The notes under the pieces were generated by a model that saw only the letters and a list, made by a program, of their open reading frames with translations, was not told the DNA's origin and did not search any database. Positions 5,981-61,804 of a DNA stretch of 64,000 bases are shown in pieces. Each line of letters begins with the position of its first letter. Position 1 is the first letter of the stretch. Origin of the DNA: a virus; the IMG/VR virus record IMGVR_UViG_3300045988_160113, positions 64,001 to 128,000 of that record; one strand, given 5' to 3'. A program made the position numbers and the translations under genes.

Positions 5981-6710
5981 TTAGTATTTCCTCCAATCTT
6001 TCTTCAATATCTTCTTCATAAGTGATATAATATAATTTTATATTATTATTATCACAATATTCTTTTTTTATTATATCAGATTTTTGTCTTTCTTCAAATT
6101 TTTCTTTATTATTCCAACCTGAATTATGATATTTGAAATGAATATCTCCTTGATATTCTATTAGACAAAGTAATTCATTTTTATTATTGAAAATAGCAAA
6201 ATCATATCTATATTTCCCACCTTTTTCCGTAGAAAAATTTGGAAAAGAATATTCGGCTTTATAATTGATATTATGACTATTTAGATATCTGTTTATTGTC
6301 ATATTTCCAACAGAAGAAATACAACCACAAGAATTGGTGTCTCCGCATTTCAAATATTGATGTTGAACTTCACAAATATTACCACAATCACATTGGCATA
6401 ACCAGACTCTTCTTCTTTTTCCATTATCTTTAGTTATCCATCTTGAAAATGATAAAACAGTTAGACGACCAAATCTTTGTCCAGTCAAGTCTCCTCCACC
6501 ACGTTTCATGTTACTTTCTGCGGCTCGTTCTTTTTGATAACAGCCACAAGATTTAGTGTTACCACTTCGTAATTTTTTCCCACTTACTATTACTTCATTT
6601 CCACATTTACATCTACATTTCCATGTTGCTCGATTGTCTTTATCATTTGGAGCGCGTGCTATTACTGTGAGATAACCATAAGTATTACCTATTTCATTTT
6701 TTAGAGCCAT
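5964..6710 (-). CDS. homing-endonuclease-like protein: Zn-ribbon repeats plus PD-(D/E)XK/Vsr-like C-terminal core
   Basis: Repeated W.C.C.CGN..V....L.SG.T.SCGC modules; C-terminal YRYDFAIF...LIEYQGDIHF; overlaps the topoisomerase B start by 17 nt. Confidence 0.5.
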   Translation of the reverse strand: MALKNEIGNTYGYLTVIARAPNDKDNRATWKCRCKCGNEVIVSGKKLRSGNTKSCGCYQKERAAESNMKRGGGDLTGQRFGRLTVLSFSRWITKDNGKRRRVWLCQCDCGNICEVQHQYLKCGDTNSCGCISSVGNMTINRYLNSHNINYKAEYSFPNFSTEKGGKYRYDFAIFNNKNELLCLIEYQGDIHFKYHNSGWNNKEKFEERQKSDIIKKEYCDNNNIKLYYITYEEDIEERLEEILNDIRR

Positions 6711-6782: not shown

Positions 6783-6926
6783 TTAGTGAAAGCCCACCTC
6801 CACTTTTGTATTATCTTTTTTCTGTTCTAAAACTACAGAATCATTTCCATCATTCAATTTTATATAAAATTCTGAGGTAATTTCTTTGGCAAGTTGTTGA
6901 AGTTGCCCAACCTTTTCAAAATCCAT
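6783..6926 (-). CDS. hypothetical small protein (47 aa)
   Basis: ATG preceded by AAAAGGAGG and a promoter cassette; below the ORF-track size cutoff. Confidence 0.45.
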   Translation of the reverse strand: MDFEKVGQLQQLAKEITSEFYIKLNDGNDSVVLEQKKDNTKVEVGFH

Positions 6927-6955
6927 AATTGCCTCCTTTTCATTTTTATATTTAT

Positions 6956-6984
6956 ATTATACTATAAAATAAAAGAAAAGTCAA
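6956..6984 (-). promoter_or_regulatory. promoter cassette
   Basis: reverse strand: TTGACT (6979-6984), 17 bp, TATAAT (6956-6961). Confidence 0.6.
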
Positions 6985-7012
6985 ATTCTAAAAGAATCTG
7001 ACTTCTCAATTA

Positions 7013-7298: not shown

Positions 7299-8345
7299 TC
7301 ACCACTTCATCATTGCTGGTTTCTTTTTTGGTTTATTTGTTACCCAAATCAACTTATCAATCGCACGAGTGGCTGCGACATAACTTACGCAACGTTCATC
7401 TGTATTATAGAATCGTGCGCCAATGACTACTACATTCTTACGTTCAAGACCTTTACTGGTATGAATAGTCAATACTTTGACTGTATCTCGTGCCATAGCC
7501 TCAGCAAATTCTTGAGCATCAAGTTCCGCGCGTTTGAAAGAATCACATGGAATACCTGCTTTTTCGAGAATGGATTTGATAGAAGAAAGTTCATTATTAG
7601 TGCGGCAAAGAACAAACCAGTCATTATAATGACCATCATTCTTGATTGCTTCGGCGATTTGAGAATTAGTGAATTCACCCTCAATTACTTGACCTTCAGT
7701 TCCGCGCATAGGGATAGAATAATCAACGTATTGTTTACCATTTTTCTTGATGATATCTTTAGCAAAAGAAAGAATTCTACTACCATTGCGATAGTTTTTA
7801 TTTAGGTCATATGTCATTACATCCCAATCTTGAGTTAGTTCAAGAAGTCTTGCGGGATTGGCCCCACGGAAACCGTATAATTCTTGGCGTGGGTCAAAGA
7901 ATATCATATAATTCTTAGGCTGGATCATATCTAACATAAAATATAATTCATTTTCTGTTGAATCCTGTCCTTCATCCAAAAGCAAATAGTCAACTTCTTT
8001 TATTGCCCATGGACGCTCTTTTATAATTTCAAAGAATTCATCAAAGTTTTCTTCTTGAATTAGTTTAGAAGTATCATAACCAGACATAAGTAATAGACGA
8101 TTACAATAAGCATGAACAGTTCCAATAAATAAGGATGGATAGTCTCCAATTCTTTTTCTCATTTCAATCGCGGCAGCATTAGTAAAAGTAATACATACTA
8201 CTTTTGATGGATCAGCACCATGTTCAAGGATATATTTTAGTCGTGCTGTAAGGCAGTGAGTTTTTCCTACAGCGACAGAGGACATTACTAATACTTTTGA
8301 TTCTTGTGTTTCTACTATTACTTTCTGCAAATCATTTAGTTCCAT
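7299..8345 (-). CDS. SF1 DNA helicase (UvrD/PcrA-like, compact)
   Basis: Walker A SSVAVGKTH; motif II LLLDEGQD; TIHTSKGLERKNVVV; YVAATRA. Confidence 0.85.
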   Translation of the reverse strand: MELNDLQKVIVETQESKVLVMSSVAVGKTHCLTARLKYILEHGADPSKVVCITFTNAAAIEMRKRIGDYPSLFIGTVHAYCNRLLLMSGYDTSKLIQEENFDEFFEIIKERPWAIKEVDYLLLDEGQDSTENELYFMLDMIQPKNYMIFFDPRQELYGFRGANPARLLELTQDWDVMTYDLNKNYRNGSRILSFAKDIIKKNGKQYVDYSIPMRGTEGQVIEGEFTNSQIAEAIKNDGHYNDWFVLCRTNNELSSIKSILEKAGIPCDSFKRAELDAQEFAEAMARDTVKVLTIHTSKGLERKNVVVIGARFYNTDERCVSYVAATRAIDKLIWVTNKPKKKPAMMKW

Positions 8346-8414: not shown

Positions 8415-9509
8415 TTAGCCGCTTGCCTTCATGTTGAATCCATATTTATCCGCTCCATAGAATTCAATCCAGAATTTTTCGCGCGCGGATAGGTTTTCCT
8501 TTTCTACTCTTTCAATTACTTCAAAAGTAAAATTATCAATTCCTTGTTTCTCCATTGCGTCATGAATTGCTGCCCATGAAATAGTTCCAGTATGAAAAGC
8601 AGATTTACAATGCTGTTGCCAACGAGATTTGATATCGGTTGATTTGCCAATATAAATACGTTCGTCTGGCCCAGTAATTTTGTAAATACCACTAAAAGAT
8701 TCATTATTTAGCACACGCTTCTCCATTTCTTTCACTGGTCGCGCAATATAAAGGTCATAAATAAGTTTATATAATGAGGTAGTATCATTTAGACGAGGCA
8801 TGATAGACAATAATATTTGAATATCTTCTTTTGCGCCATCTGATAATTGGATTTTATAAAATTGACTTTGCTCTTCAACCGCACGCTTGCGAAGAATTGC
8901 TTCATTTATAAGTCTTTGTTTTTCTTTGAAGTCATTTACTTCGGATTGTAGACTTTCCTTCTGCGCGCATAATGAAAGAATATCATCATTTATAACTGCT
9001 TTTATTTCTTCTCCATACTCATTGATATTCTTTGCCATTTGGTCTTTAGAAGCCTGGACTTTCTCTTCCTCCGCGCGCAGAGTAGATTGAAGTTTTGTAA
9101 TTGCTTCAACTTTATGGTGCTGAAGTTGTTCATCTACTAAAGCAATACGATGATTTTTATAATCATTTAGTCTAATTTCATATGCGTTTTTCAAATTCTC
9201 AGTATGTTGGTATAGAATATCTTGTTGCTTCAAAGCATCAAGTCTTGCTTCATCTATTTGATTTCTAATTGTATTTAGAGAACGCTCTTGCGCGGCAATA
9301 GAACTATTATAATTTTGTTGTAATTGCTTTATTTCTATGTCATACTTTTCTTTTTCTAATCTATATTCTTCTTGTATTCTTCTTCTTTCTTCTACATATT
9401 CACTAAAGTCTCTTTCAGTTAACTTTAGATATTTATTCTTCAAATATTTTGATAATAAAATTATTGCTATTATTGCTACTAATATAATTATACCATATAT
9501 CATAACCAC
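8415..9509 (-). CDS. membrane-anchored coiled-coil protein with C-terminal GIY-YIG nuclease domain
   Basis: N-terminal TM segment IYGIIILVAIIAIILL; long heptad-rich middle; C-terminal SGIYKITGPDERIYIGKSTDIKSRWQQH...FWIEFYGADKYGFN. Confidence 0.7.
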   Translation of the reverse strand: MVMIYGIIILVAIIAIILLSKYLKNKYLKLTERDFSEYVEERRRIQEEYRLEKEKYDIEIKQLQQNYNSSIAAQERSLNTIRNQIDEARLDALKQQDILYQHTENLKNAYEIRLNDYKNHRIALVDEQLQHHKVEAITKLQSTLRAEEEKVQASKDQMAKNINEYGEEIKAVINDDILSLCAQKESLQSEVNDFKEKQRLINEAILRKRAVEEQSQFYKIQLSDGAKEDIQILLSIMPRLNDTTSLYKLIYDLYIARPVKEMEKRVLNNESFSGIYKITGPDERIYIGKSTDIKSRWQQHCKSAFHTGTISWAAIHDAMEKQGIDNFTFEVIERVEKENLSAREKFWIEFYGADKYGFNMKASG

Positions 9510-9592: not shown

Positions 9593-10153
9593 TTAGAGCT
9601 TCCCATCCCTAGAAAGCGTATTATAATATCCAATGATAAAAGCATATTCAACATCCATTTGTCCATTTGTCAAGTTATTAGCCTTCAACAACTCATTATA
9701 TTTTTTGTGAATGTCAAATATATGATTGAAATCATCTAAAGTGGGGACTGTAACACCATGACGGCATTGTGTGGCGAAGTGGAGAATTTCATATCTAATG
9801 CGGTCAATTTCATTCTTGTCAACTTTTTCATTGAGAAGTTTTATCATATCATTTTGCGCGCGGTTTGTGTTTTCAATATCATCAAGTCGTTCATGGATAT
9901 CATCAATTTTACTAAAAATTTCCCCATAAATTTCTTCTTGATGAATTTTGAATTGTTCAATCAATGTGTCTGCGGTTTGTTTAGAAATTTCTTGAATTCT
10001 ATCTTTCCTTTTTTGTTCTCGCTTGGCGACACGTTTTTTGCCCGCGGTCGTAAATGTTTCCCAAAATTTGACTATTCCTAAAATTGCGCCGAGAAATCCC
10101 GCAATAGCAATGACTCCGCCAGAGAGATACTGTAAGTATTGTAAAATCATCAC
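9593..10153 (-). CDS. hypothetical membrane-anchored coiled-coil protein
   Basis: N-terminal hydrophobic segment GGVIAIAGFLGAILGIV followed by a charged helical region. Confidence 0.55.
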   Translation of the reverse strand: MMILQYLQYLSGGVIAIAGFLGAILGIVKFWETFTTAGKKRVAKREQKRKDRIQEISKQTADTLIEQFKIHQEEIYGEIFSKIDDIHERLDDIENTNRAQNDMIKLLNEKVDKNEIDRIRYEILHFATQCRHGVTVPTLDDFNHIFDIHKKYNELLKANNLTNGQMDVEYAFIIGYYNTLSRDGKL

Positions 10154-27193: not shown

Positions 27194-27263
27194 GATTAGG
27201 AAACACTTACTATTTTAGAAAGAAAAGACTGATATATAATTATATATAAAGGAGGTCACCTAT

Positions 27264-28082
27264 ATGAAATATGTTGGCGAAAATGCCCTCAAAAAATGGA
27301 CTTCATTAGTCAAGTCCGACATAAAGAAAAAACTCGACAAAAACCAAGGCACTGCTAATTCTGGCAAAATTCTTGGTGTCAATGCGACTGGTGAAGTTGC
27401 ACCTACTGATACTGAGGTTGCTACTCTGGTGGACGTCCCCAATGGGATTGTAAAGGGAGATGGGAGTACACTGAGTGCGGCAGTAGCAGGGACGGACTAT
27501 ATGGCTCCAGTTACCGGTGGTTCTTCCGGTCAAGTGCTGACGAAAACCGCCGATGGGCAGGAGTGGGCAGACGCGGCGGGGGGCGATGTGTTCTGGATTC
27601 ACGCGACGTTGAGCGGGGCTACCGTTACCGCAGACAAAACCCCCAGCGAAGTCAAAGAAGCAATGGTAGCTGGGAAATTATGCCTTTTGGATATTGGTTT
27701 TCCATATCCAACATTGGTTGGAGGCGATGTGCGGAATGTGTCGGGTATTCCTCAAAGCATAATATTTACAGCAGTTAAAGAGAAAAGTAAGGATTCAGAA
27801 GCAGGAACAGTCTACTCAGTGACATGCAGTTTTACAGTCGATGCATGGCAGGCTCTCACAAAAACCATTATCCCAAGAATACCTATACCGAATAGCTCCA
27901 ACGAGGGCAAATTTGTAAAATCGATCTATGATGATGGTGACGAGGCGTATTATGCACGCTGGCAACCCATCGCCCCCTCCGACATCGGCGCTATCGCAAG
28001 CGGCAACATCGTCAAGCAGACGCTTGTGAACGTTGAGACCACGCCGACCGAGAACTACGCCATCAACTGGCTGTTCGGCTAA
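27264..28082 (+). CDS. tail fibre protein, compositionally chimeric
   Basis: AT-rich N-terminus; GSTLSAAVAGTDYMAPV fibre motif; switches to GC-rich coding from about 27430. Confidence 0.65.
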   Translation: MKYVGENALKKWTSLVKSDIKKKLDKNQGTANSGKILGVNATGEVAPTDTEVATLVDVPNGIVKGDGSTLSAAVAGTDYMAPVTGGSSGQVLTKTADGQEWADAAGGDVFWIHATLSGATVTADKTPSEVKEAMVAGKLCLLDIGFPYPTLVGGDVRNVSGIPQSIIFTAVKEKSKDSEAGTVYSVTCSFTVDAWQALTKTIIPRIPIPNSSNEGKFVKSIYDDGDEAYYARWQPIAPSDIGAIASGNIVKQTLVNVETTPTENYAINWLFG

Positions 28083-28092
28083 GGAGGCGCGC

Positions 28093-29223
28093 ATGGCTAC
28101 ATTTACTGTAGAGATAACGCCAGATTCTAGCAACGGTACTATCGCCCACGCAGTCGGAAAGTTTTCCGGAGGGTCAAGCAGCTATAAAGGTCGGCGACGC
28201 ATGAACGTTACCGTCAGCGGCGTCGGGACATTTTCTGCGTTATCGCCGGAGACAAGCGGAGGCGAAAACACTTTTTCTCTCGACATCACGGGGCTGACGC
28301 CGGGGACAACGTACAACTGGAGCGCGTCACTCTACTACAAACATACGTCCGGGGGTTGGGTGACAGCAGGATCGCAGTACGATAAATCCGGAAGCTTTAC
28401 GACGAAAAGTAAAACCCCTACATTACCAAAAACGCTCGTCAACGGCACTGCTTACGACGTTAAGGGCGGGAAGTGCCTCGTCAACGGCACGGTGTACAAT
28501 ATCCTCAAGGGCAGGACGCTTATCGGCGGGACGGGGTATGATATTGCGCTGTCGAGCGCGGGGACAAAGATTGAGACGCTGAACGTGGGACAATCAGTAT
28601 ATGCAAATGTTGGTGGCGTGCGCAAGGAATTCATCGTTGTCCATCAGGGCAAGCCAAGTTCTTTGTACGATGATTCCTGCAATGGCACTTGGCTGTTGAT
28701 GAAGGATATCTACGAGAATAGGCAGTGGAACAGTTCCGATTCCAACGTATATGAAACCAGCACGGTCAACACTTACCTTAACGGGCCGTTTCTTGGGCTG
28801 TTTGACTCTAACATTCAAGGGATTATCAAACAGGTCAAGATACCGTACCGCAAAGGTGGCGGCAGCGGCACTGACCAGTCCGGCGCAAATGGCCTGTCCG
28901 CGAAGATATTTTTGTTGTCTGGTTACGAAGTAGGCTGGACGACCAGCAACCACGAGTTGTTCCCACAGGATGGCGCGAAGCTGTCCTACTTTGAGTCTGG
29001 GACCGGCACGTCCGCCAACAAGAAGCGCATTGCGTACCTGGACGGCTCGGTCGCCATCTGGTGGCTCCGCTCCCCGAACATCGGCTACACCGACGGGGTA
29101 TGGCGCATCAGCGCCGGTGGCAGCTACGACTACAACAACGCATCCCGCTCGTACGGCATCCGCCCCTGCATCATTCTCCCGTCCACTACCCTCGTGGATG
29201 ACGAATTCAATCTTACCACTTAA
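28093..29223 (+). CDS. GC-rich fibre/receptor-binding protein with VR-like C-terminal tail
   Basis: ATG 28093 after AAGGAGG; C-terminal IWWLRSPNIGYTDGVWRISAGGSYDYNNASRSYGIRPCIIL and internal TVNTYLNGPF parallel the DGR target protein. Confidence 0.65.
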   Translation: MATFTVEITPDSSNGTIAHAVGKFSGGSSSYKGRRRMNVTVSGVGTFSALSPETSGGENTFSLDITGLTPGTTYNWSASLYYKHTSGGWVTAGSQYDKSGSFTTKSKTPTLPKTLVNGTAYDVKGGKCLVNGTVYNILKGRTLIGGTGYDIALSSAGTKIETLNVGQSVYANVGGVRKEFIVVHQGKPSSLYDDSCNGTWLLMKDIYENRQWNSSDSNVYETSTVNTYLNGPFLGLFDSNIQGIIKQVKIPYRKGGGSGTDQSGANGLSAKIFLLSGYEVGWTTSNHELFPQDGAKLSYFESGTGTSANKKRIAYLDGSVAIWWLRSPNIGYTDGVWRISAGGSYDYNNASRSYGIRPCIILPSTTLVDDEFNLTT

Positions 29224-29235
29224 AGGAGTGAAACT

Positions 29236-30036
29236 ATGTCAACTTACATCAAAGTCAACAACACCGAATACCCCGCGACCATCACGGGCGAGCACAAAGA
29301 CCGCACGTGGGGTGAGCGCGAGGTCAAGAACATCCGCCTGACGATGACCGCCACCGAGGCGGCGGCGCTGCTACCCGACAACACGCCGTGGAGCATCGTA
29401 CAGCGCGACACCGTACCTAAGTACGATGAGGACGGCAAGCCCACGGGCGAGACCGAGGAGGTCGTCAACGAGTGGGACAACAGCGCGTACAGCCTGAGCG
29501 GGGCGATCACCGACCACCGCGACGGCACGGTCACGGTCAAGATGGGAAAGCCCACGGAGACCGAGAGCGCCAAAGCGACCGTCACCGCCCTTGCTGGCGA
29601 GCCGGTCACATACGCCCGCGCGGTGGAGCTACGCCCCATTATCGAGCAGACAGCGGTCAGCCTGAGCGACGGCGAGGCGGCAAGCGTGCCGGAACTCATC
29701 ACAGCATGGGCGTACCCCGTTGATTACGCTGAGGGCGACCGCAGGAGCTACGGCGGTAAGGTGCACAAGTGCCGTCAGGCACATACCTCGCAGGCCGACT
29801 GGACGCCGGACAAGACGCCCGCGTTGTGGGCGGTCATCGACGCCGAGCACGCGGGCACGCAGGCAGACCCCATCCCGGCAGCGCGCGGCATGGAGTACGA
29901 GTACGGCAAGTACTACCTCGACGGCGAGGACGGCAAGGTGTACCTCTGCGAGCGCACGGGCGAGCAGGCGGGCGGCAAGATCACGCTGCAATACCTGCCG
30001 CACGAGCTGGTGGGCAACTATTTCAAGGCGGCCTAA
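29236..30036 (+). CDS. GC-rich structural protein with CBM5/12-like carbohydrate-binding C-terminus
   Basis: YGGKVHKCRQAHTSQADWTPDKTPALWAVI resembles the aromatic CBM5/12 motif; AAGGAG RBS. Confidence 0.5.
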   Translation: MSTYIKVNNTEYPATITGEHKDRTWGEREVKNIRLTMTATEAAALLPDNTPWSIVQRDTVPKYDEDGKPTGETEEVVNEWDNSAYSLSGAITDHRDGTVTVKMGKPTETESAKATVTALAGEPVTYARAVELRPIIEQTAVSLSDGEAASVPELITAWAYPVDYAEGDRRSYGGKVHKCRQAHTSQADWTPDKTPALWAVIDAEHAGTQADPIPAARGMEYEYGKYYLDGEDGKVYLCERTGEQAGGKITLQYLPHELVGNYFKAA

Positions 30037-39315: not shown

Positions 39316-39392
39316 GGAGCAGTAACTCAGTTTGGTAGAGTAGCGGTCTTTTAAGCCGTCTGTCGGGTGTTCGAATCACCTCTGCTTCACCA
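39316..39392 (+). tRNA. trnK: tRNA-Lys (UUU)
   Basis: GGAGCAG/CTGCTTC; GCGGT-CTTTTAA-GCCGT; GGGTG-TTCGAAT-CACCT; CCA. Confidence 0.8.
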
Positions 39393-43052: not shown

Positions 43053-43092
43053 ATATTCAGAAAGTGAGAGGAGAACTAAATCTCCTCAATAT

Positions 43093-43168
43093 AGCAGTAG
43101 GGAGAAACGGTTTCCTCGCTTGGCTCATAACCAAGAGACATCTGGGTCAGCACCAGTTACCGCAACCA
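43093..43168 (+). ncRNA. tRNA-like module (anticodon-like CAU) with non-canonical T-loop
   Basis: 76-nt cloverleaf: CTTGG-CTCATAA-CCAAG arm, T-arm TCTGG-GTCAGCA-CCAGT, 3' TACCGCA-A-CCA; 5/7 acceptor pairs. Confidence 0.45.
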
Positions 43169-44361
43169 CAATTAAAAACAATGAGGCTAACGGCAGTTGC
43201 ATCAACGAAAGTTGATTAGACGGGTCGGGGTTAGCAAAGAAAGGTTAACAGGTAGTGCAGCGGTAGGTAACAAATCCGTAAGTCGAAATGAGTTGGGAAA
43301 ACCAAATGATACGGCTTAGTCCTTCGTAAGAAGTTGAAGAGAGATTTTAGGTAAAAGGTAACAACTTTTAACTGCTCTTCGTAATTGACCATGAAACAGG
43401 GTCATAGCTACCACTCATTGTTTTTAGATGTTTTATCAAAGAAGACGAATGGTTGGTGAGTCTCAAAACAACCCAACTACCACATTACTAATCATCGCTA
43501 CTCGTGGTTAGTAAGTTGTTTTAGAAGTAGCAAACCTACGAGTATGGTAGGCGGCGCGGTAATAGTCGTAAAGGGTGAGGTAAAGCTGAATTATCATTTG
43601 AGGTAGTTTCTTTCTCCTAGCCAAAAACAGAAACCGGTGCGCAGTCGTGAAATGCGGGAATGGTAGATAAGCCTTAGTGTACTACTCATACGGTTGTGAG
43701 TTCTCCTATGTATCTTGAGAACTCTCGGCGGCGAATGCCTAAATCTCCCCGCCCGCGCGGTTATAGCGGCGTTTACCAAACTGTTATTCGATAAAATGGT
43801 TTGGAAGTGCGAGTAGTAACTTGGAATTACTCCCGAAAGCAACGGTTAGATTGCTCAACTTGCTAGACTCAAGTTGACAAATGGGAGGTGGCCCCTCCTA
43901 TGTCTCCCACGCAACACTAAGCGCGGGCGTATATGGGAAATAGTCAACCATATACTTATTGGGTTGAGAGTGTAATATTATACATAAAATCCCTCTGCGC
44001 GCAGAGTAAATCTGCGGTATCGTAGTAAAAACTCTACAAAAAAACTATATCAAAGGGACGACTCTAAACGAGGTAAGGGAAACAAAGTAAAGAGTACATT
44101 CTCTTAGGCTACTTTGGTATTATATGTGGTGTGGTTGAGGAGTATGGGCGACGATACACCGGAATGCGGAGTTAGCGACATACTGTGTAGATGGCGAGTC
44201 AACAGAGCGATATAGTTTATTTTGGCTTCCTTTCCGCTCTTGCGGGATGACTCTAGGATAGCGATACTACAAAGTAAAGGAGGACTGTGATTTATTCATA
44301 GCCCTCTTTTGCTTTACCAAAATTGTGTATTTTTAGGTAGAAAATTTTACTTAGTAATAAG

Positions 44362-44386
44362 AGGTTATAAAATTATAACCTTTTAT
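44362..44386 (+). terminator. intrinsic terminator closing the noncoding unit
   Basis: AGGTTATAA-TTATAACCT palindrome followed by TTTTAT. Confidence 0.55.
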
Positions 44387-49231: not shown

Positions 49232-50425
49232 ATGACTGTTCATGATACTTATGATAATCTAATGGAAGTCCAAAAGTTTATTCTTGACCACGAAAATTGG
49301 AAAGAACTCTTGGAAAATCCTCCTTACTGCCTGAAGATTACCGTAGAGGGTACTCTTATTATGTTCAATTATAGTCAGTTGGATTCTGATTTCTATAATC
49401 CTATCGTCAAGGAATGCCGTGGTTTGATTCTTGATAAAAATACTTACCGAGTTGTGTGTCGCGCGATGGATAAGTTTATGAATGCTGAGGAAGGTGCAAG
49501 TGACCTCAATAAAATCAACTGGTTTGATTTTCAGATTCAGACTAAAATTGATGGGTCTTTGATTCGTCTTTATCATTATAACGGCGAATGGCACGTGTCC
49601 ACCAGTGGTACGATTGATGCCTTCAATGCACCTCTCAATGTTGGCGGTTACAAGACTTTCGGTGATTTATTTGCGGCAGCACTATGGAAGTATATCAATC
49701 CTGAGTGTTTTTATGGAATGCTTGACCCTACTCATACTTATTGGTTTGAGTTGACTTCTCCGTATAACCGCGTTGTTATTCCTTATGATGAAATTGAATT
49801 GACTTTTCTTGGTTGGCGCGCAAATTATGCTCCCTATAAGGAAAAGTGGCCCTCTCAGTCAGTTGTCGCAGAGTATATTCCTATTGCTAGTAGGCTTCCT
49901 CGTCAATCTTATCAGTCTCTCCGCGCGCTGGCTGATTCATTGCCTTGGAATGAAGAGGGCTTTGTAATTTGTGATAATAATTTCCATCGTGTCAAGGTGA
50001 AGTCTCCTGCTTGGATTTCTGCGCACTATCTGCGGAATAATGGCATTCAGCCTGACCGTAGACTTATTGATGTTATCCTACATGGTGAGCAGGAAGAATT
50101 GCTTACTTATGCTCCTGAATATACCGACCGTCTACACGAACTTCAAGCAATGATGGAAGAGTATCACCTGCGCGCTGATGAACTTTTTAGTGTTTATTTG
50201 GAAATGTATATTGGTTTGGATTGTCCTGGCCGCGCATGGTTCGCAAAAACTGTAAAGAAGAATAAAGAAGATTGTGAACCGTATTTGTTTTGGGCTTTCA
50301 GTAAGATTTATGGCACTCCGCGCGGTGAAATGGATGATAATAAAGATTATTCTTTCAAGAGATATGAGAAGGAAAATCTTGATGCGCGCAAGTGGGTAAG
50401 ATTGTTGAAGTTGAAGGAGGAATAA
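49232..50425 (+). CDS. ATP-dependent RNA ligase (Rnl1-like)
   Basis: Motif I QTKIDGSLI (KxDGS); ECRGLILD upstream; EEGFVICD (motif IV-like); VKVKSP (motif V-like). Confidence 0.6.
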   Translation: MTVHDTYDNLMEVQKFILDHENWKELLENPPYCLKITVEGTLIMFNYSQLDSDFYNPIVKECRGLILDKNTYRVVCRAMDKFMNAEEGASDLNKINWFDFQIQTKIDGSLIRLYHYNGEWHVSTSGTIDAFNAPLNVGGYKTFGDLFAAALWKYINPECFYGMLDPTHTYWFELTSPYNRVVIPYDEIELTFLGWRANYAPYKEKWPSQSVVAEYIPIASRLPRQSYQSLRALADSLPWNEEGFVICDNNFHRVKVKSPAWISAHYLRNNGIQPDRRLIDVILHGEQEELLTYAPEYTDRLHELQAMMEEYHLRADELFSVYLEMYIGLDCPGRAWFAKTVKKNKEDCEPYLFWAFSKIYGTPRGEMDDNKDYSFKRYEKENLDARKWVRLLKLKEE

Positions 50426-55550: not shown

Positions 55551-56112
55551 ATGGCAATCTGGATTACTTCAGATTGGCATTAGGCATTTTTGCCATGATA
55601 GAGAATTTCTTTATAAGCCACGCGGTTTTGATAATATTCAAGATATGAATCGTGCAATTATTCAGAGGCATAATAAACTGGTAAACTGGGATGATGATGT
55701 CTATACTCTTGGTGATTGTATGCTCAATAATAACGATGAGGGAAGAAGTTGCATTGCTCAGTTGAATGGACAAATTCATATTATTAGAGGAAACCACGAC
55801 AGTAATGGCCGTATGGAAATCTATCGTGGCCTTCATAATGTAGTTGAAGTGTGCGAAGGTAAATTCCTGCGCAATGGAAAATACCATTTCTATCTTTCTC
55901 ATTATCCTTGTCTTACGAGTAATTGGGATGAAGATAAACCTCTCAAGGCGCGCATGACGAATTTGTGTGGTCATAGTCATACTAAAGACCATTTTGCAGA
56001 CTGGGGCAAAGGTCTAATTTTTCATTGTGAAATGGATACAAATAATTGTGAACCCATTCTTCTTGATGATATTATCAAGAAAATTGAAATCAAGTTAGGA
56101 GAAAATAAATGA
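55551..56112 (+). pseudogene. calcineurin-like metallophosphoesterase with an internal frame change
   Basis: MAIWITSDWH (motif I, frame of 55551) hits TAG at 55581. The remainder, RHFCHDREFLYKPRGF...GDCM...RGNHDSN...CGHSH, continues in the +1 frame (track ORF 55645-56112). Confidence 0.6.
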
Positions 56113-56478: not shown

Positions 56479-56982
56479 ATGCTTGTTGTTCTTGTTGGCC
56501 CTTCGTATAGTGGTAAGTCAACTGTATGTGAATTTTTCAAGAGATATTATAAGATGCAGGAACTTCCTATGTATGTTGTTTGTCCTGATGATATTCGTGA
56601 AGAACTTCTTGGTGATGCTAGCGACCAGTCAAATGGCAAGATGATTTTTGAGACTGCTTATGAAAGAGTAGACAAGGCACTAAATTCTTCTTTGAATACT
56701 GTTTTCTTTGATGCTACTTCGCTTACTCCTGCGCGCAGAAAGCCTCTTATTGAAATTGCGAAGAAACATAAAACGTGTTGCTTTGCCGTGGTTATGCCTA
56801 ACTTTACTGAAGAAGAACTCACTGCGCGCGCAGCAACTCGTGAACGTAAGGTTCCTTTAGATGTGGTCTACGCGCAGAAACAGAGAATGATTTATCCTAA
56901 TGTTGAAGAAGGCTTTGATTATACTATGGAGATTCCGAAGTCTTCATTGGATATTATGAAGGAGCGACTAAATGATTGTTAG
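56479..56982 (+). CDS. P-loop kinase (polynucleotide-kinase-like)
   Basis: MLVVLVGPSYSGKST Walker A at the N-terminus; about 167 aa. Confidence 0.55.
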   Translation: MLVVLVGPSYSGKSTVCEFFKRYYKMQELPMYVVCPDDIREELLGDASDQSNGKMIFETAYERVDKALNSSLNTVFFDATSLTPARRKPLIEIAKKHKTCCFAVVMPNFTEEELTARAATRERKVPLDVVYAQKQRMIYPNVEEGFDYTMEIPKSSLDIMKERLNDC

Positions 56983-57568
56983 TATTCTTGCTATTCTTGC
57001 TATTGTAATATTCACTGGTTCGTTTATTACCAATTTTATTTTTCGTTATCAAGCATATAAGAAAAATGACCATTATTTTTATCATGACACTTGGTATGGA
57101 GATAAACCTAAAATTTGGGCTTATTTTGGAGAATGGCTTTTGCTAATTCTTGTCATTGGTTTTTTATATGTTTTTATCAGTTTTGGTATTTATATATTTA
57201 CTGAGGGTTCAGATAATTTTACCCATTATGAAAAAGATAATGAATGGACTATTTATGCTTTAGATGATTCCATTGGTGCAAGTGGAAGATTTTTCCTTGG
57301 TAGCGGCAGAATTGATTCAGATATCTATTATTATTATGTTTATAATACTGTTCATGGGCAGAAAATTGGAAAGCTTCGCGCTTCTAATGTATATCTAAAA
57401 TATGATGATGATAACCATTATATTGAAAAGTATAGTAGGCATTATAATGATGATTTGAAGACTAAACTATTGGTAACTCAGTTATTCACTAAATGCGAAG
57501 ATAGTTATTATGTTATTTATATTCCAGAAGGTAGTATTACAAATGATTTTACTGTTGATTTACAGTAA
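56972..57568 (+). CDS. membrane protein
   Basis: Two TM segments (ILAILAIVIFTGSFITNFIF; LLLILVIGFLYVFISFGIYIF). Confidence 0.55.
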   Translation: MIVSILAILAIVIFTGSFITNFIFRYQAYKKNDHYFYHDTWYGDKPKIWAYFGEWLLLILVIGFLYVFISFGIYIFTEGSDNFTHYEKDNEWTIYALDDSIGASGRFFLGSGRIDSDIYYYYVYNTVHGQKIGKLRASNVYLKYDDDNHYIEKYSRHYNDDLKTKLLVTQLFTKCEDSYYVIYIPEGSITNDFTVDLQ

Positions 57569-57583
57569 TTTAGTAACTAAAAT

Positions 57584-57612
57584 TTGAAATTTTCTGAAGT
57601 ATATGATATAAT
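57584..57612 (+). promoter_or_regulatory. promoter cassette
   Basis: TTGAAA, 17 bp, TGATATAAT; leader ATATATAGAAAGTGAGAGAAAG. Confidence 0.65.
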
Positions 57613-57639
57613 ATATATAGAAAGTGAGAGAAAGAGAAA

Positions 57640-57843
57640 ATGAGAATTCTTTTTATTATACTGTTTATCATTGGTGTTGCAGTTTTTCTTTTTTGTTTTA
57701 TTCAATGGTGTTTTGCTTTGGCTAATATTAGTAGTAAAAATGATTCAAAAGAAATTGAAAGAATACTTTATTGGAATCTGTGGATTGCATTTTCTGCTCT
57801 TTATATAAACATTATCAATATTTTATTCAAACTTTGTGTATGA
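57640..57843 (+). CDS. small membrane protein
   Basis: 67 aa, two TM segments. Confidence 0.55.
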   Translation: MRILFIILFIIGVAVFLFCFIQWCFALANISSKNDSKEIERILYWNLWIAFSALYINIINILFKLCV

Positions 57844-58016
57844 AGAAAAAAATTATGAAGAAGAAGATTGTTGAAAAGTTATCTGAACTTGAGAGACGAG
57901 ATAAATTCTTCACTGAGTTAGAAGAAACTTGTCCCATTCATTATGAAGGAACAGATATTGTAGCAGATGTTTCTCTTGATGTGGAATTTATCTTTCAAAA
58001 TTTGAAAAATTCATAA
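57840..58016 (+). CDS. hypothetical small protein
   Basis: ATG 57840 (MKKKIMKKKIVEK), ATGA overlap. Confidence 0.45.
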   Translation: MKKKIMKKKIVEKLSELERRDKFFTELEETCPIHYEGTDIVADVSLDVEFIFQNLKNS

Positions 58017-58030
58017 ATCTTTGCTATAAT
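58002..58030 (+). promoter_or_regulatory. promoter cassette
   Basis: TTGAAA, 17 bp, TGCTATAAT; leader ATTTATAGAAAGTGAGAGAG. Confidence 0.65.
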
Positions 58031-58059
58031 ATTTATAGAAAGTGAGAGAGGTAAACAAA

Positions 58060-58272
58060 ATGAATAGAAGTGAGTTCTTTGAATTAGTTCATGATGTTGT
58101 TGATACATATGGTGTTTATTCTTGCCTTGATAATGAGGATGACATTGAAGAGAATAATCTCTGGTTCAACTGTCCAAATTGTGGAGACCCAATTTTGTAT
58201 GACGATTTCAAGAACGACAAAGACCTTCATGCCGGCTTCTGTCCGATTTGTGAATCTCAACTTTTTGATTGA
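58060..58272 (+). CDS. small zinc-ribbon protein
   Basis: CPNCG...CPIC; ATG 58060. Confidence 0.55.
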   Translation: MNRSEFFELVHDVVDTYGVYSCLDNEDDIEENNLWFNCPNCGDPILYDDFKNDKDLHAGFCPICESQLFD

Positions 58273-59419
58273 TAAATCCTTTCAATACTCGAATGGTCGG
58301 TGAGAGTATAAATAACCTGACTACCATGGTGAAACGGTAGTAGCCAACCAGTATAGAGGAGTTCGATTCTCTGAACCGCGGCGTTCGACTCGTCCGGTGC
58401 GAGGGCAAAACTGGTATAGCGCGAAGAAATTGGAGAGCCAGATGACGCGCTACTCTCTGATGCTGGTCAGTCTCACGTCTTGCAGAAAGCATCTAAAACA
58501 CGGGGTACGCTGAGCATTAGTCGATGCGGCGGCTTCCTAGGAGAGTTCTAACCTAGGCCAAGGTTTATGAACACCGCAAGTAAGGTTCTTCTTTTCGAGG
58601 GTGATGTATTGTGAGGAAGGGCTGAAAGACTTAGATGGGAAGTAATGATGATTACTCGATCTAAGTGTGTAGAAAATTAGAATCGAAGACCTCGTAGCGG
58701 CCGTAGCGAGGCTACCGTGTGGACGGTAATCGTGTCCTCCAAAGTGCTAGGCAAAGCGGGCATACAGAGTGGTGATTGAACAGTTATTGGCTAGTCCACT
58801 CATTGAAGCTACTAATCCTGACGTCGGAGGTAGTAGTTGACGGCAATCAAAAAGATTGTAAGTCCATGGAACTAATGCGCTGTGCTCATTGTCTATGGCA
58901 TGACTGTGAAGACTCAATAGGATGTCTTCCAAAACGATGTGAGAAGTCGTGCAGAGTGGTGATAACACTAGCCCACTCAATAAATCCAGATGATACTGGT
59001 TGAGTTGTGTGTAAGGAAGAGGTAAGGTTGGTGTGCGGTATATAAAGAAGGCCGTGATTAGCATACAACAAAAAATACAGACGAGGGGTTAGGTAATGTG
59101 ATGGATTCGGCGGGTGAAAGTCCCGTGGAGGTAGTCTGTATTCTAATTCTAATTCTAAAAACCTACATAGAAGTAATTCCACCTTGAGAAGGGTCGTCAT
59201 TCGACGAAGTATAAGTTGAGTACTACTTATACTAATAAAACAGACTGGTGGTTGAGTAGGTCATCTGGATTCTTCTAATAGGTAGCAGTCACCTACGTCA
59301 AGCGGGCCTTGTATCACGGTTTCCCGCGGAAGGCTGTAGACTGTGAGAGTGTGATAGTAAATGGGAACAGGGGAGGCCCTCAAGCACACGGGCGAGCGCA
59401 CGCCTTTCTCCCTATATAT

Positions 59420-59488
59420 GCTTAGTTGGTGTAAGGGGTAGCATAAGCCGCGGAAGCGGAGACTCTGGTTCGAACCCAGAACTAAGCA
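59420..59488 (+). ncRNA. tRNA-like module with anticodon arm replaced by a GNRA-capped hairpin
   Basis: GCTTAGT/ACTAAGC acceptor; GTGT-AAGGGGTA-GCAT D arm; CCGC-GGAA-GCGG; TCTGG-TTCGAAC-CCAGA T arm; no CCA. Confidence 0.45.
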
Positions 59489-59567
59489 CAGTAATGTGGT
59501 AACTACCATGCTCAACGCGCGAGAGTACCCGGAAGGTAGTTGACAGCCAGGAAAGACTGGCAGGCCT

Positions 59568-59636
59568 GGTCGATTAGTGTAACGGTAGCACGCCATCCTT
59601 TTATGGAGGAAGAGAGGTTCGACTCCTATGCGATCT
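59568..59636 (+). ncRNA. degenerate tRNA-like module (UUU-type loop)
   Basis: GTGT-AACGGTA-GCAC D arm; CCATC-CTTTTAT-GGAGG (one mismatch); AGAGG-TTCGACT-CCTAT; poor acceptor pairing; no CCA. Confidence 0.35.
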
Positions 59637-59745
59637 CAATTATTTATTAGGTAGTCATTACTCCATCGCGAGGAGCCTAAACAAGAGTAAAAGAATGACT
59701 GGCACTCTGGAAAGACGGAGAGACGTCTATAAAGAGGTAGTTGAT

Positions 59746-59952
59746 ATGGATTGGAAAGAAGTTGTTATTTGTGCGCCAGAGGACGCCGTAAAGAAAGCAA
59801 TAAAGTTTTGTGAAAGTCATGAGTGCGTGGAATGTCCAATTCATATCAATGATATTGAGCATAGAACAAAGTATGATAAATGTTGTGAATTTGTTCCTTG
59901 TGTGGCTAATTTGATTTATGAGTTGGTTGTGCACCCACATTATGAACTTTAG
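59746..59952 (+). CDS. small Cys-rich protein
   Basis: ATG 59746 after AAGAGG; CAPED...CESHECVECP...CCEFVPC. Confidence 0.5.
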   Translation: MDWKEVVICAPEDAVKKAIKFCESHECVECPIHINDIEHRTKYDKCCEFVPCVANLIYELVVHPHYEL

Positions 59953-59955
59953 TTT

Positions 59956-59994
59956 GGTCGGTTAGTCAAGTGGGCTAAGACACAAGGTTTTGGA
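59956..59994 (+). tRNA. tRNA-Gln (UUG), 5' half of a split gene
   Basis: GGTCGGT-TA-GTC-AAGTGGGCTAA-GAC-A-CAAGG-TTTTGGA. Confidence 0.6.
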
Positions 59995-60123
59995 GATGGT
60001 AATATAGCAATTATTGATTCTTACAGTAAAGAAGAATTAGAAAGTATTATCAAAAGTTCTTATTCTTATAAAGAAGTTCTTGAAAAATTAGGTTATTATA
60101 GTCATAGCGGAAGTTCTTATAAA

Positions 60124-60732
60124 ATGCTACAAGATAGAATTCAAAAATATAATATAGATATATCTCATTTTACTAAGAAAAAGAATATTGTTCGGAATGA
60201 AGAGAATATATTTATAAAAGATTCTACTGTTTCTCAGCATTGTTTACGAGATTGGTATTTGAAAGGTAAATATACTGAGTATAAATGCTCTATCTGTGGA
60301 CAGGAACCTTTTTGGCAAGGTAAGCCTCTTACGCTTATTTTGGATCACATAAATGGGAAAAACCATGATGATAGATTGGAAAATCTTCGATGGGTTTGTC
60401 CTAATTGTAATCAACAATTAGATACTACTGGCTATAGAAAATTCAGAACGGAACAAAAAAGCAAGAAAGAATATTTTTGTTCAAATTGTGGTAAAAAAAT
60501 ATCTAAAGGTTCTACTTTATGTGTAGAATGTTTAGGGAAAACTAACCGGATTTGTGAACGACCGAATAGACAAGAATTGAAAAATATGATAAGAACAATG
60601 AACTTTGTTGATATTGGTAAAAAATATAATGTATCTGATAACGCTATTAGAAAATGGTGCGATACTTATAATTTGCCTCGGCTTGCTACACTTATAAAAC
60701 AAATTCCCGATAACGAATGGGAAAAAATCTAA
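60124..60732 (+). CDS. HNH homing endonuclease inside the split tRNA-Gln gene
   Basis: LILDHINGKNHDDRLENLRWVCPNCN (HNH) plus Cys4 ribbons. The frame is open from 59953 through the tRNA 5' half, and upstream residues NIAIIDSYSKEELESIIKSSYSYKEVLEKLGY look like part of the protein, so the true start is probably upstream or non-ATG. Confidence 0.8.
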   Translation: MLQDRIQKYNIDISHFTKKKNIVRNEENIFIKDSTVSQHCLRDWYLKGKYTEYKCSICGQEPFWQGKPLTLILDHINGKNHDDRLENLRWVCPNCNQQLDTTGYRKFRTEQKSKKEYFCSNCGKKISKGSTLCVECLGKTNRICERPNRQELKNMIRTMNFVDIGKKYNVSDNAIRKWCDTYNLPRLATLIKQIPDNEWEKI

Positions 60733-60769
60733 CCTTGGAACAGGAGTTCGATTCTCCTACCGACTCCCA
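60733..60769 (+). tRNA. tRNA-Gln (UUG), 3' half of a split gene
   Basis: CCTTG-GAAC-AGGAG-TTCGATT-CTCCT-ACCGACT-C-CCA; joined to 59956-59994 it gives a canonical 76-nt cloverleaf. Confidence 0.6.
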
Positions 60770-61012
60770 CGAGTGAGCATTGGGCCAACTAACACTCTCA
60801 AAAATGATTGTCCCTTCTTCACCCTCCGCGTGGGCTACTCATAGCACAGAGACCACAAATGCGCGGCCATTATCAAAAGTCAAAAATCCTTGGCTTTGTA
60901 TAAGTATAGTTCTACTGGTTGAGCAACAGTATGATAATACTTTAGTTTGATGGTTGATGTGTAGAGACTTTACTTGGTTCGGCTCGGAAGTGGGTAAAGT
61001 CTTGATTTATTT

Positions 61013-61087
61013 AGAGGATTAGTGGACCAGTGGACACGCTCGGCTTTGACCCGAGAGAAAGACGGCCAGCACGTCTATCCTCTGCCA
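61013..61087 (+). tRNA. tRNA-like gene with UUG (Gln) anticodon and non-canonical T-loop
   Basis: AGAGGAT/ATCCTCT acceptor, G73, CCA; CTCGG-CTTTGAC-CCGAG; T arm AGACG-GCCAGCA-CGTCT lacks TTC. Confidence 0.5.
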
Positions 61088-61111
61088 TAATAATTTTATA
61101 AGAAGGGAGAT

Positions 61112-61753
61112 ATGAACGGTTATATTTATAAAATTACTAACGATATAAATGATAAAGTATATATCGGAAAAACATTATTGAATATTGAAAAAAGATTTCT
61201 TCAACATAAAAACGATAGTCGGAGAATTAGATTAGAAGTTCGTCCATTATACCGAGCAATAAAAAAATATGGATGTGAACATTTTTATGTTGAATTAGTA
61301 GAAGAATGCCCAATAAAAGAATTATCTAATAGAGAAATTTATTGGATTGATTTTTATGATTCATATAAAAATGGATATAATGCTACTATGGGTGGAGAAG
61401 GTAAACAATTTTATGATTATGACATTATCGTAAGTGAATTTTTATCTGGTAAAACAACAAAAGAAATAATGAATGATTTGGGTTGTTGTATTGAAACTGT
61501 ACGTAATGCTTTACATTTAGCAAATATAGATATAAATACAAATAATTATAAAAAGTATCAAAAGAATTTTGTAGCAAAGGATAAAGACAAAAAAATTGTT
61601 CAAAATTTTTTGACTAAAAGAGAAGCCGCAGAATGGCTAATCAAAAATGGTTATTCCAAAACCGATAACATTAAAAGTATTACAAGTGTAATTGGCCGAG
61701 TATTGAATGGTCAGCGAGAAAAAGCTTATCATTTTTATTGGGAGTATACTTAG
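61112..61753 (+). CDS. GIY-YIG homing endonuclease
   Basis: NGYIYKITNDINDKVYIGKTLLNIEKRFLQHK...IYWIDFYDSYKNGYNATMGG. Confidence 0.85.
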   Translation: MNGYIYKITNDINDKVYIGKTLLNIEKRFLQHKNDSRRIRLEVRPLYRAIKKYGCEHFYVELVEECPIKELSNREIYWIDFYDSYKNGYNATMGGEGKQFYDYDIIVSEFLSGKTTKEIMNDLGCCIETVRNALHLANIDINTNNYKKYQKNFVAKDKDKKIVQNFLTKREAAEWLIKNGYSKTDNIKSITSVIGRVLNGQREKAYHFYWEYT

Positions 61754-61804
61754 TTTATCAAATCTACCTGCGCCGCCATAAGAATTTATAAAGGAGAATT
61801 ATCT

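Follow-up and report, generated by a model that had tools for sequence, protein, structure and literature searches.

The 64-kb window of viral DNA analysed here (64,000 nucleotides (nt) of IMG/VR record IMGVR_UViG_3300045988_160113, to which all coordinates refer unless a related locus, numbered L0xx, is named) is an AT-rich, phage-like contig with a G+C (GC) content of about 35% that encodes seven clustered tRNAs at 36-40 kb as well as homing endonucleases, a Clp protease, an RNA ligase of the Rnl1 type and a kinase/phosphatase pair. The stretch under study, 58273-59745, is a real, conserved and modular non-coding RNA locus, new at the family level and belonging to a known kind of system. An earlier sequence-only reading had described the stretch as GC-enriched and without credible coding, and both descriptions hold: GC is 0.43-0.51 over 58.4-59.6 kb as against about 0.27-0.38 in the flanks, an enrichment of ~14 points above the genome, the longest open reading frames (ORFs; 75-111 amino acids (aa)) overlap and are mostly antisense, no ORF of the stretch has a Pfam match at a meaningful E-value, and gene callers place no gene there in 16 of the 17 related loci used. 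A real gene on either strand, which that reading had named as the finding that would speak against it, was sought in the ORF list and with Pfam and gave no coding signal. The limits of the stretch shift slightly, since the conserved element runs from 58285 to 59728 and conserved non-coding sequence resumes at 60770-61012. The components of the locus are as follows.

58002-58030, + strand: candidate sigma-70-like promoter (TTGAAA, 17-nt spacer, TG-TATAAT), upstream of a 70-aa ORF
58285-58326, + strand: H-type pseudoknot mimicking a tRNA acceptor arm, from covariation across 16 distinct copies
58327-58346, + strand: short hairpin region directly after the ACCA of the pseudoknot, from the alignment of relatives
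58347-59419, + strand: GC-enriched body, the conserved non-tRNA core, ~1.07 kb, with 90-93% median identity to relatives
58354-58373, + strand: T-arm-like hairpin, whose 15-mer at 58357-58371 equals the T arm of a split tRNA at 60742-60756
58767-58801, + strand: repeated hairpin, copy 1, CAGAGUGG-UGAU..loop..GCUAG-UCCACUC
58803-58951, + strand: optional, replaceable segment between the hairpin copies, from the alignment of relatives
58954-58978, + strand: repeated hairpin, copy 2, with loop UGAUAACACUAG
59151-59279, + strand: variable segment with two alleles, ~128 nt in the window, L004 and L010 and ~40 nt in most others
59420-59488, + strand: tRNA-like structure 2, with an acceptor stem GCTTAGT/ACTAAGC of 7 base pairs (bp), a D arm with GG and a canonical T arm
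59489-59567, + strand: linker between the mimics, median identity 94.6%, among the most conserved blocks
59568-59636, + strand: tRNA-like structure 3, a degenerate cloverleaf, from ARAGORN, Rfam and covariation
59637-59728, + strand: conserved 3' segment ending ...GAGACGTCT, with a real tRNA starting at the next base in relatives
60770-61012, + strand: second conserved non-coding block of the array, 87-97% identical in all relatives

Homologues were gathered via the upstream 70-aa protein, variants of the neighbouring kinase, one metagenome scan and IMG/VR scans, and yielded 17 usable relatives, gut-metagenome contigs (L002-L014, L031, L037-L041) that are only 4-18% diverged. The non-coding blocks are 90-95% identical to these relatives (median) and the flanking genes 80-96%; in L014 the RNA is 92% identical although the upstream gene is only 70% identical. 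Insertions and deletions of a length that is not a multiple of three are spread throughout the alignment, and variation is clustered at an insertion site at 58326/58327, in the segments 58803-58951 and 59151-59279, and in the anticodon arms of both tRNA mimics.

At the head of the element two crossing, covarying helices are followed by a single-stranded NCCA, the arrangement that defines an acceptor-arm mimic of the turnip yellow mosaic virus (TYMV) type. Stem S1 pairs ATACTC (58285-58290) with GAGTAT (58304-58309), with GAAT (58291-58294) as loop L1, and stem S2 pairs GGTCGG (58295-58300) with CTGACT (58317-58322), after which comes ACCA (58323-58326); in the general form, S1 joins the 4-6 nt before an invariant GAAU to the nt after GGUGA, and S2 is GGYYGG/CYRRCU. 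The 16 distinct copies align unambiguously, and 85.4% of their pseudoknot cells are paired as against 71.8% after shuffling, with a covariation score of 0.505 as against 0.222 (0/500 shuffles reach either value; slid controls give at most 0.14). Five of the six S1 pairs have changed on both sides, S2 is 99% paired with two covarying pairs, GAAU is invariant in 16/16 copies, and A-CCA is present in 13/16, with one substitution in each of the other three. S2 and its tail (GGUCGG / CUGACU-A-CCA) reproduce the acceptor stem of the tRNA at 59956/60759 (GGTCGGT / ACCGACT-C-CCA) over its first six pairs and its 3' end; this is a neighbouring phage tRNA-Glu encoded by the split gene at 59956. When stacked, S1 and S2 form a helix of 10-12 bp that has U at -1, either G or A at +1, and A-CCA at its 3' end. 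Such a helix, with these bases and this end, is the determinant set of bacterial RNase P, an enzyme that accepts acceptor/T mini-helices and the pseudoknotted tRNA-like end of TYMV RNA.

This fold revises the view of 58295-58378 as a degenerate copy of a split tRNA-Gln. GGTCGGT at 58295 does match the split tRNA at 59956 in its 5' acceptor strand, and the 15-mer AGGAGTTCGATTCTC is indeed identical at 58357-58371 and 60742-60756; the cloverleaf does not hold, GGTCGG being paired locally with CTGACT in the pseudoknot. The T-arm-like hairpin around the 15-mer (58354-58373) hardly varies among the relatives, two of which carry one substitution. Between pseudoknot and hairpin, the junction 58326/58327, exactly after ACCA, is a hot spot of strain-specific insertions, absent from the window (0 nt), ~87 nt long in L008 and L037 and ~120 nt long in L005, L007, L009, L012, L013, L031 and L041, and the flanking ACTACC...GGTAGT is kept around them.

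The head also occurs apart from this body. A motif shared by 58290-58326 and 43446-43482 had been noted before; it is present at both places with a gap of 9 nt instead of the 12-13 nt then given (CGAATGGTYGGTGAG-N9-AACC-N2-ACTACCA), and IMG/VR motif scans with the 12-13-nt gap found nothing because the real gap is 9 nt. The motif is far above chance because it recurs with covariation elsewhere. That the two large non-coding regions are related is borne out for the ~45-nt pseudoknot head and for nothing else, the profile of the second region, the one studied here, having found in 43053-44386 nothing beyond the motif, which itself scores E 0.97. IMG/VR loci were recovered by the core of RAGATH-33 (RF03102) and then by the corrected motif, on phage contigs of ~48-219 kb with the motif up to four times per locus, and the same head type stands before different bodies in other phages (e.g. 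L029, L020); heads and bodies are thus shuffled among phages. GTDB genomes gave no hit to the pseudoknot pattern or to a core box, and hence no pointer to the host, and the TTCGACAC...GTGTCGAG boxes of large IMG/VR phages are absent from the window. So is a recurrent box of L025, ATTCGACACT(C/A)ACAGCAA with its complement (A)GTGTCGAG 60-120 nt downstream (6475-6550, 8450-8580 and 9853-9985 of that locus); at 9880-9960 the same locus holds an apparent circularly permuted tRNA, in which T arm, 3' acceptor strand and CCA precede the 5' acceptor strand and D arm.

RAGATH-33 itself scores 129.9 bits at 43186-43313, ~120 nt upstream of the second head copy (43435-43482), and was rejected as the identity of the study region, being absent from 57900-61300. 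It occupies the same tRNA islands, with a head copy just downstream or elsewhere in the locus in the window and in 7/10 of the IMG/VR loci that were recovered by its core. It differs in that it seems, in L025, to be a short RNA in its own right, furnished with a promoter and a hairpin. At 7400-7820 of that locus RAGATH-33 and a head-plus-body are each equipped with a promoter of the TTGACA/TATACT type, and RAGATH-33 closes with a hairpin resembling a terminator, so the two look like separate RNAs. A literature search found no paper with the term RAGATH-33.

Near the tail of the element, two structures keep the acceptor and T arms of a tRNA while their anticodon arms turn over with compensatory changes. 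Structure 2 has, as the sequence-only reading had seen, the shape of a tRNA with CCGC-GGAA-GCGG in place of the anticodon arm. In all 17 of 17 sequences its acceptor stem is invariant and its T arm (TCTGG-TTCGAAC-CCAGA in the window) nearly so, and the replacing arm is a hairpin of 3-4 bp with a loop of 4-11 nt, often GNRA (GGAA in the window), with nine alleles that differ in sequence and length; no CCA is encoded. Rfam gave no tRNA report for it at E<=10, and it was rejected as a tRNA (RF00005), with a 3-4-bp hairpin where a 7-nt anticodon loop belongs. Structure 3 had been called a degenerate Lys-like cloverleaf, of which the cloverleaf holds: 90.4% of cells are paired as against 76.8%, the covariation score is 0.411 as against 0.186 (0/500 shuffles reach either), all four arms covary, and most alleles fold to a cloverleaf on their own. 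The Lys-like character is limited to the allele of the window and L010, the only one to keep the Lys-like loop (CUUUUAU), and a proper tRNA-Lys is present elsewhere, at 39316. Scoring of the modules with ARAGORN and Rfam, which the earlier reading had proposed, returned a tRNA-Lys(ttt) call at 59567-59637 and 25.6 bits against the Rfam tRNA model, below the gathering score of 29; among the relatives the anticodon loops are 5-8 nt, mostly 6, and ARAGORN calls Lys, Leu, Pro or undetermined and nothing in 12/17 sequences. Structure 3 was consequently rejected as a tRNA (RF00005) on score, on a 7-nt loop that is not conserved and on the differing ARAGORN identities. Genomes that are otherwise 90-95% identical differ in structure 3, of which there are at least three cassettes of the whole module and about eight alleles of the anticodon arm; its turnover is far faster than that of its surroundings while the stems stay paired, and only 1/17 relatives aligns over at least 60% of the anticodon arm. 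Given that acceptor and T arms are kept and anticodon arms vary, selection acts on tRNA shape and not on decoding. A conserved acceptor stem stacked on a T arm with a canonical T loop is what RNase P and RNase Z read, and cleavage here is predicted from it. The linker between the mimics can pair with 59654-59675 across structure 3, with no two-sided changes there.

The body, 58347-59419, bears out the conserved non-tRNA core that had been proposed, within a + strand non-coding RNA locus. A set of 292 local RNAalifold pairs, from which the replaceable segments were excluded, is 98% paired, and 15 pairs have changed on both sides as against 4.4 +/- 1.6 in shuffled alignments and 1-3 in slid controls. 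In 3/4 blocks folding favours the + strand over the - strand, and GGTAG occurs 9 times as against 3.0 +/- 1.8 expected (GGUAG being three-fold enriched). When covarying stacks were sought exhaustively, noise from single sequences dominated the outcome. The duplicated GAGTGG...CCACTC hairpin described earlier is there, at 58767-58801 and 58954-58978, and GAGTGGTGAT occurs only twice in 64 kb. The consensus of the hairpin module, CAGAG(Y)GGUGA...CUAG(Y)CC(R)CUCA, is found in 2-3 copies per homologue with loops of 5-18 nt; a compensatory form, GAGCGG/CCGCUC, occurs in L038 and at 971-997 of L042, an unrelated 150-kb phage in which the module lies inside another tRNA-flanked non-coding stretch and which also has the loop sequence of copy 2. 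L042 carries at 1217-1295, in addition, a 79-nt element that matches both ends of the tmRNA model (62.7 bits, model positions 1-374) with G3-U70, A73 and CCA and no body; it is possibly a mini domain of tRNA-Ala type within a phage tRNA island. Between the hairpin copies, 58803-58951 is replaced by unrelated sequence in L031, L038, L040 and L041, and in L002 and L037 a further segment, bearing a third copy of the hairpin, lies directly upstream; the variable segment 59151-59279 is almost absent in L007. A tandem triplication of a ~45-nt unit, TGTATGTCTACCATATAACAAAAATACAGAGAATACTGTTGAGT, lies in the body of L039 at ~1000-1150, which corresponds to ~59000-59070 of the window.

The boundaries of the element in relatives coincide exactly with tRNAs. 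By ARAGORN, a tRNA-Pro ends on the first S1 base in L014, L031 and L041, and after the ...GAGACGTCT end a tRNA follows with zero spacer, tRNA-Ser in L005 (11677) and L014 (12243) and tRNA-Glu in L009 (10549) and L041 (4862). In the window, the 70-aa ORF replaces the upstream tRNA and a 68-aa ORF lies between the 3' end of the element and the next tRNA. That tRNA gene is disrupted (59956-59994 and 60733-60769) by a 738-nt insertion in the anticodon loop, 59995-60732, which ends exactly at the stop codon of an HNH ORF (60124-60732) and shows no group I intron signature at E<=10; it had been taken for a split tRNA-Gln, and the intact alleles in L003, L004, L009, L031 and L041 identify it as tRNA-Glu(ttc). 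Downstream of this variable gene/tRNA cassette stands the block 60770-61012, followed by tRNA-Gln(ttg) in L003, L014, L031 and L041. At the same place the window has a degenerate tRNA-Gln-like cloverleaf, 61013-61087 (acceptor AGAGGAT/ATCCTCT, anticodon loop CTTTGAC, an unusual T loop GCCAGCA and a G-CCA end), which neither ARAGORN nor Rfam calls. The promoter candidate at 58002-58030 matches the consensus at 11/12 positions and has an extended -10; on this consensus match it is likely the start of a transcript running into the non-coding region, and no terminator-like site was found on the + strand in 57500-61400. A 55-70-nt intergenic repeat with a TTGAAA/TATAAT promoter-like site and a ribosome-binding site (57574-57643, 57991-58066) recurs at scattered places ahead of many small genes, and L001 has it at 571, 6474, 9520, 9938, 14233, 15426 and 19101.

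The locus belongs to phages of the gut metagenome. The region 57500-61800 is identical to ENA gut-metagenome contigs of up to 136 kb (L001, L011), and neither the region nor 12 kb of its neighbouring genes matched any of 50,697 isolate phages in blastn; a neighbouring 549-aa protein likewise had no match among the isolate phages. A 198-aa neighbour protein used as an anchor in IMG/VR found nothing, and no non-coding stretch of a comparable kind lies in the loci of the distant kinase homologues P0095 and P0098 (L033-L036). Upstream of the RNA locus lie the Rnl1-type RNA ligase (49232-50425), whose relatives in isolate phages are all <36% identical, a metallophosphatase (55645-56112) and an AAA_33/KTI12-type kinase (56479-56982), which are syntenic in all relatives and look like a tRNA-repair gene set. 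Elsewhere in the window, a GC block of 0.46-0.675 at 27200-30000, with its peak at 29600-30000, stands far above the genome average of ~0.35 and overlaps long ORFs.

The comparison with known families that had been recommended was made by Rfam cmscan of 57900-61300 (3.4 kb) with permissive filters and reporting to E<=10. No family passed its gathering threshold in the region, and the permissive search gave the sub-threshold tRNA hit at 59568-59636. GOLLD (RF01998) gave no covariance-model hit at E<=10, its conserved 3' domain included, and neither did ROOL (RF03087), which is defined by six multistem junctions together with three pseudoknots. A genuine ROOL in L024, a 120-kb IMG/VR phage, served as control and scored 302 bits (4468-5062, - strand), in the same tRNA island as a RAGATH-33 (6879-6991). 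A tmRNA was rejected because ARAGORN calls none, the third acceptor pair of S2 and of structure 2 is U-A and not G3-U70, and no tag ORF was identified. For a group II intron the only similarity was 19 nt long, GGCGGGTGAAAGTCCCG (59108-59129) against the first positions of RF02003, with E 6.4 and 13.9 bits where the gathering score is 49, and YrlA, hammerhead, twister and HDV were likewise rejected on the Rfam results.

Several known systems share parts of this architecture. Non-decoding tRNA shapes as processing signals are known from the MALAT1 mascRNA, from mitochondrial tRNA punctuation and from the stable RNAs of the phage T4 tRNA cluster, and like these the present element has such shapes at the ends of a larger RNA, with acceptor and T arms conserved and real tRNAs abutting; unlike them, it combines three kinds of mimic, a pseudoknot mini-helix, an anticodon-less tRNA and a degenerate cloverleaf, in one bacterial-virus transcript, whose cleavage is predicted. 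In plant-virus RNA 3' ends of the TYMV type the acceptor arm is built from a pseudoknot, and the head resembles them in its two stacked helices of ~10-12 bp followed by a single-stranded A-CCA, whereas its ACCA is internal, it has no equivalents of the T loop or anticodon domain, and it belongs to a DNA phage. With tmRNA and YrlA the element shares acceptor/T-arm mimics devoid of a decoding anticodon arm, but the region gives no ARAGORN or Rfam hit to either. The likeness to ROOL and GOLLD is one of niche, that is, a large non-coding RNA, GC-rich relative to its genome, located in phage tRNA islands and probably co-transcribed with tRNAs. The locus shares the setting of GOLLD, which lies in phages or prophages near tRNAs and sometimes has tRNAs within a linker: tRNAs bound the locus in relatives and tRNA-like modules lie inside it, a context that is insufficient for membership. 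It differs from both in a body with no sequence or covariance-model similarity that is longer (~1.07 kb, or 1.44 kb with the modules) and confined to one phage lineage, and in the pseudoknotted acceptor mimic at its head and the anticodon-less tRNA mimics near its tail.

The region is most likely a conserved folded non-coding RNA of a class that no database lists, and the tRNA look-alikes at head and tail probably let the tRNA-processing enzymes of the cell cut it from a long transcript. The absence of coding, the conservation, the pseudoknot, both tRNA mimics and the exact tRNA boundaries in relatives are shown and agree with this; transcription, cleavage sites and any role of the body we infer. 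The reading that we favour, and consider on balance probable, is that of a precursor RNA from the tRNA island, which RNase P and RNase Z would cut at the mimics so that a body of ~1.1 kb is released. The region would be part of the phage tRNA island and lie on one long + strand transcript from the 58002-58030 promoter. Its 5' pseudoknot mini-helix, which ends in A-CCA and has a conserved U before the first G, would present the features that RNase P reads in an acceptor/T arm, and the two 3' mimics, of acceptor/T-arm shape with no working anticodon arm, would serve as processing signals. Cuts by host RNase P would fall at 58294/58295, 59419/59420 and 59567/59568 as well as at the following tRNA; behind the mimics, RNase Z or exonucleases would do the trimming, and the products would be a ~1.1-kb RNA (58295-59419) and two short conserved pieces. 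The released body may then be a stable folded RNA during infection, in the genomic niche of ROOL and GOLLD. Several observations weigh against this. The ACCA of the pseudoknot is internal in the DNA and not a 3' end, a cut by RNase P at G58295 would sever the 5' strand of S1, and the acceptor stem of structure 3 has only 4-5 good pairs. The covariation of the body is modest, and its support is overstated because the structure came from the alignment on which it was scored; single-sequence folding z-scores are unremarkable (-0.26, -2.13 and +0.67, as against -0.51 for a coding control), and a global alifold of the 1.46 kb gave long-range pairs with no support and established neither a long-range helix nor a global fold. 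Given that the body is found in one phage lineage only, its conservation could partly reflect recent common ancestry and recombination. A bolder variant, which we regard as rather unlikely, makes the head a portable maturation signal not described before, RNase P-directing or self-cleaving, and the body a new ornate RNA class that acts during infection, as ROOL and GOLLD do, as a self-assembling particle or an RNA-protein scaffold; if it were true, phages would use the head to splice arbitrary structured RNAs into tRNA-array transcripts.

Other explanations of the mimics have to be weighed against processing of a precursor. The head and mimics might be decoys that sponge host tRNA-cleaving or 3'-end-modifying toxins, or tRNA enzymes, with the body as a scaffold. 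The tRNA-repair gene set (ligase, metallophosphatase, kinase) suggests pressure from tRNA-targeting defence, the turnover of the structure 3 anticodon arm through about 8 alleles is as expected in an arms race, and S2 copies one specific tRNA acceptor stem. Nevertheless, structure 2, which has no anticodon loop, and structure 3, whose loops are mostly of 5-6 nt, would be poor bait for anticodon nucleases, without processing of the RNA the ACCA stays internal, and the conserved 1.07-kb body is left unexplained; decoys are thus unlikely as the main explanation, and they are compatible with the processing model rather than exclusive of it. Somewhat less probable still is that the head is a small, theta-like self-cleaving ribozyme that, with no need of RNase P, releases both the 3' end of the tRNA upstream and the RNA downstream. 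Theta ribozymes, which are HDV-like, are found beside gut-phage tRNAs, and the job proposed for them is the maturation of the tRNA and its neighbour (PMC10879173). Like them, the head is small, pseudoknotted and directly 3' of phage tRNAs in relatives, in gut Caudoviricetes; it follows the CCA of tRNA-Pro in L014, L031 and L041, the context described for theta ribozymes (PMC10879173), its loop nt are strictly conserved (GAAU, UGA, A-rich L3), it is found together with RAGATH-33 and RAGATH-18, two motifs whose name refers to an association with ribozyme-linked genes, and a possible third helix, GAAU/AUUC with a downstream TTCGAC box, would give a nested double-pseudoknot topology. However, no Rfam ribozyme family, HDV included, was hit at E<=10 (the descriptor that the theta-ribozyme authors used with RNArobo was not applied), S1a and S1b are 13 nt apart, which leaves no room for P3, so that there is no P3/L3 hairpin, and no candidate catalytic C is conserved at a fixed place. 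Moreover, only 4.5% of theta-ribozyme-adjacent tRNAs encode CCA (PMC10879173), whereas the neighbouring tRNAs here do.

The remaining explanations concern the locus as a whole. A decaying tRNA array, in which the modules are pseudogenes and the rest is neutral spacer, was the case that the sequence-only reading had named as refuting its own. It would agree with a position in a tRNA island bounded by tRNAs, with the resemblance of structure 3 to a degraded tRNA-Lys, with cassettes gained and lost between strains and with the weak thermodynamic z-scores. It fits poorly with a core that is present, is not tRNA and is as conserved as coding sequence, with excess compensatory change and GC ~14 points above the genome, and with a structure 2 whose acceptor is perfect and whose T arm is kept in 17/17 sequences; since change there is confined to the anticodon arm, and neutral decay would not be that selective, decay is disfavoured and we consider it distinctly improbable. 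The body could also be a very divergent member of GOLLD or ROOL beyond the reach of the Rfam models, given the same niche (phage, tRNA island, large size), the ROOL in the equivalent island of L024 and the capacity of GOLLD to carry tRNAs in its linker (10.1101/2024.12.08.627333). This was already disfavoured by the absence of any hit on the 3.4 kb, in a search where a real ROOL is readily scored, and given that the GOLLD 3' domain is described as universally conserved (10.1101/2024.12.08.627333) it is very improbable. The least credible proposal is an element that acts as DNA, for instance an origin of replication, a packaging site or a hot spot for recombination: the repeated GGTAG, the repeated hairpins and cassette exchange at fixed junctions are what might be expected of one, but many conserved G-U pairs and G-C to G-U changes fit one strand only, folding is asymmetric between the strands, and the tRNA-shaped modules are oriented as all neighbouring tRNAs, so that this too fits the data poorly.

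Large conserved RNAs in phage tRNA islands, of which ROOL and GOLLD are the examples, are an open problem to which this locus adds an unrelated third, one whose modules have well-marked limits. It provides a newly defined, recurrent pseudoknot that copies the acceptor end of a tRNA and is absent from Rfam, and it documents anticodon-less tRNA mimics that are kept under selection. The general rule suggested is that phages may mature non-tRNA RNAs by dressing them as tRNAs, a rule that would help to annotate many of the gene-free, GC-rich gaps in the genomes of uncultured phages.

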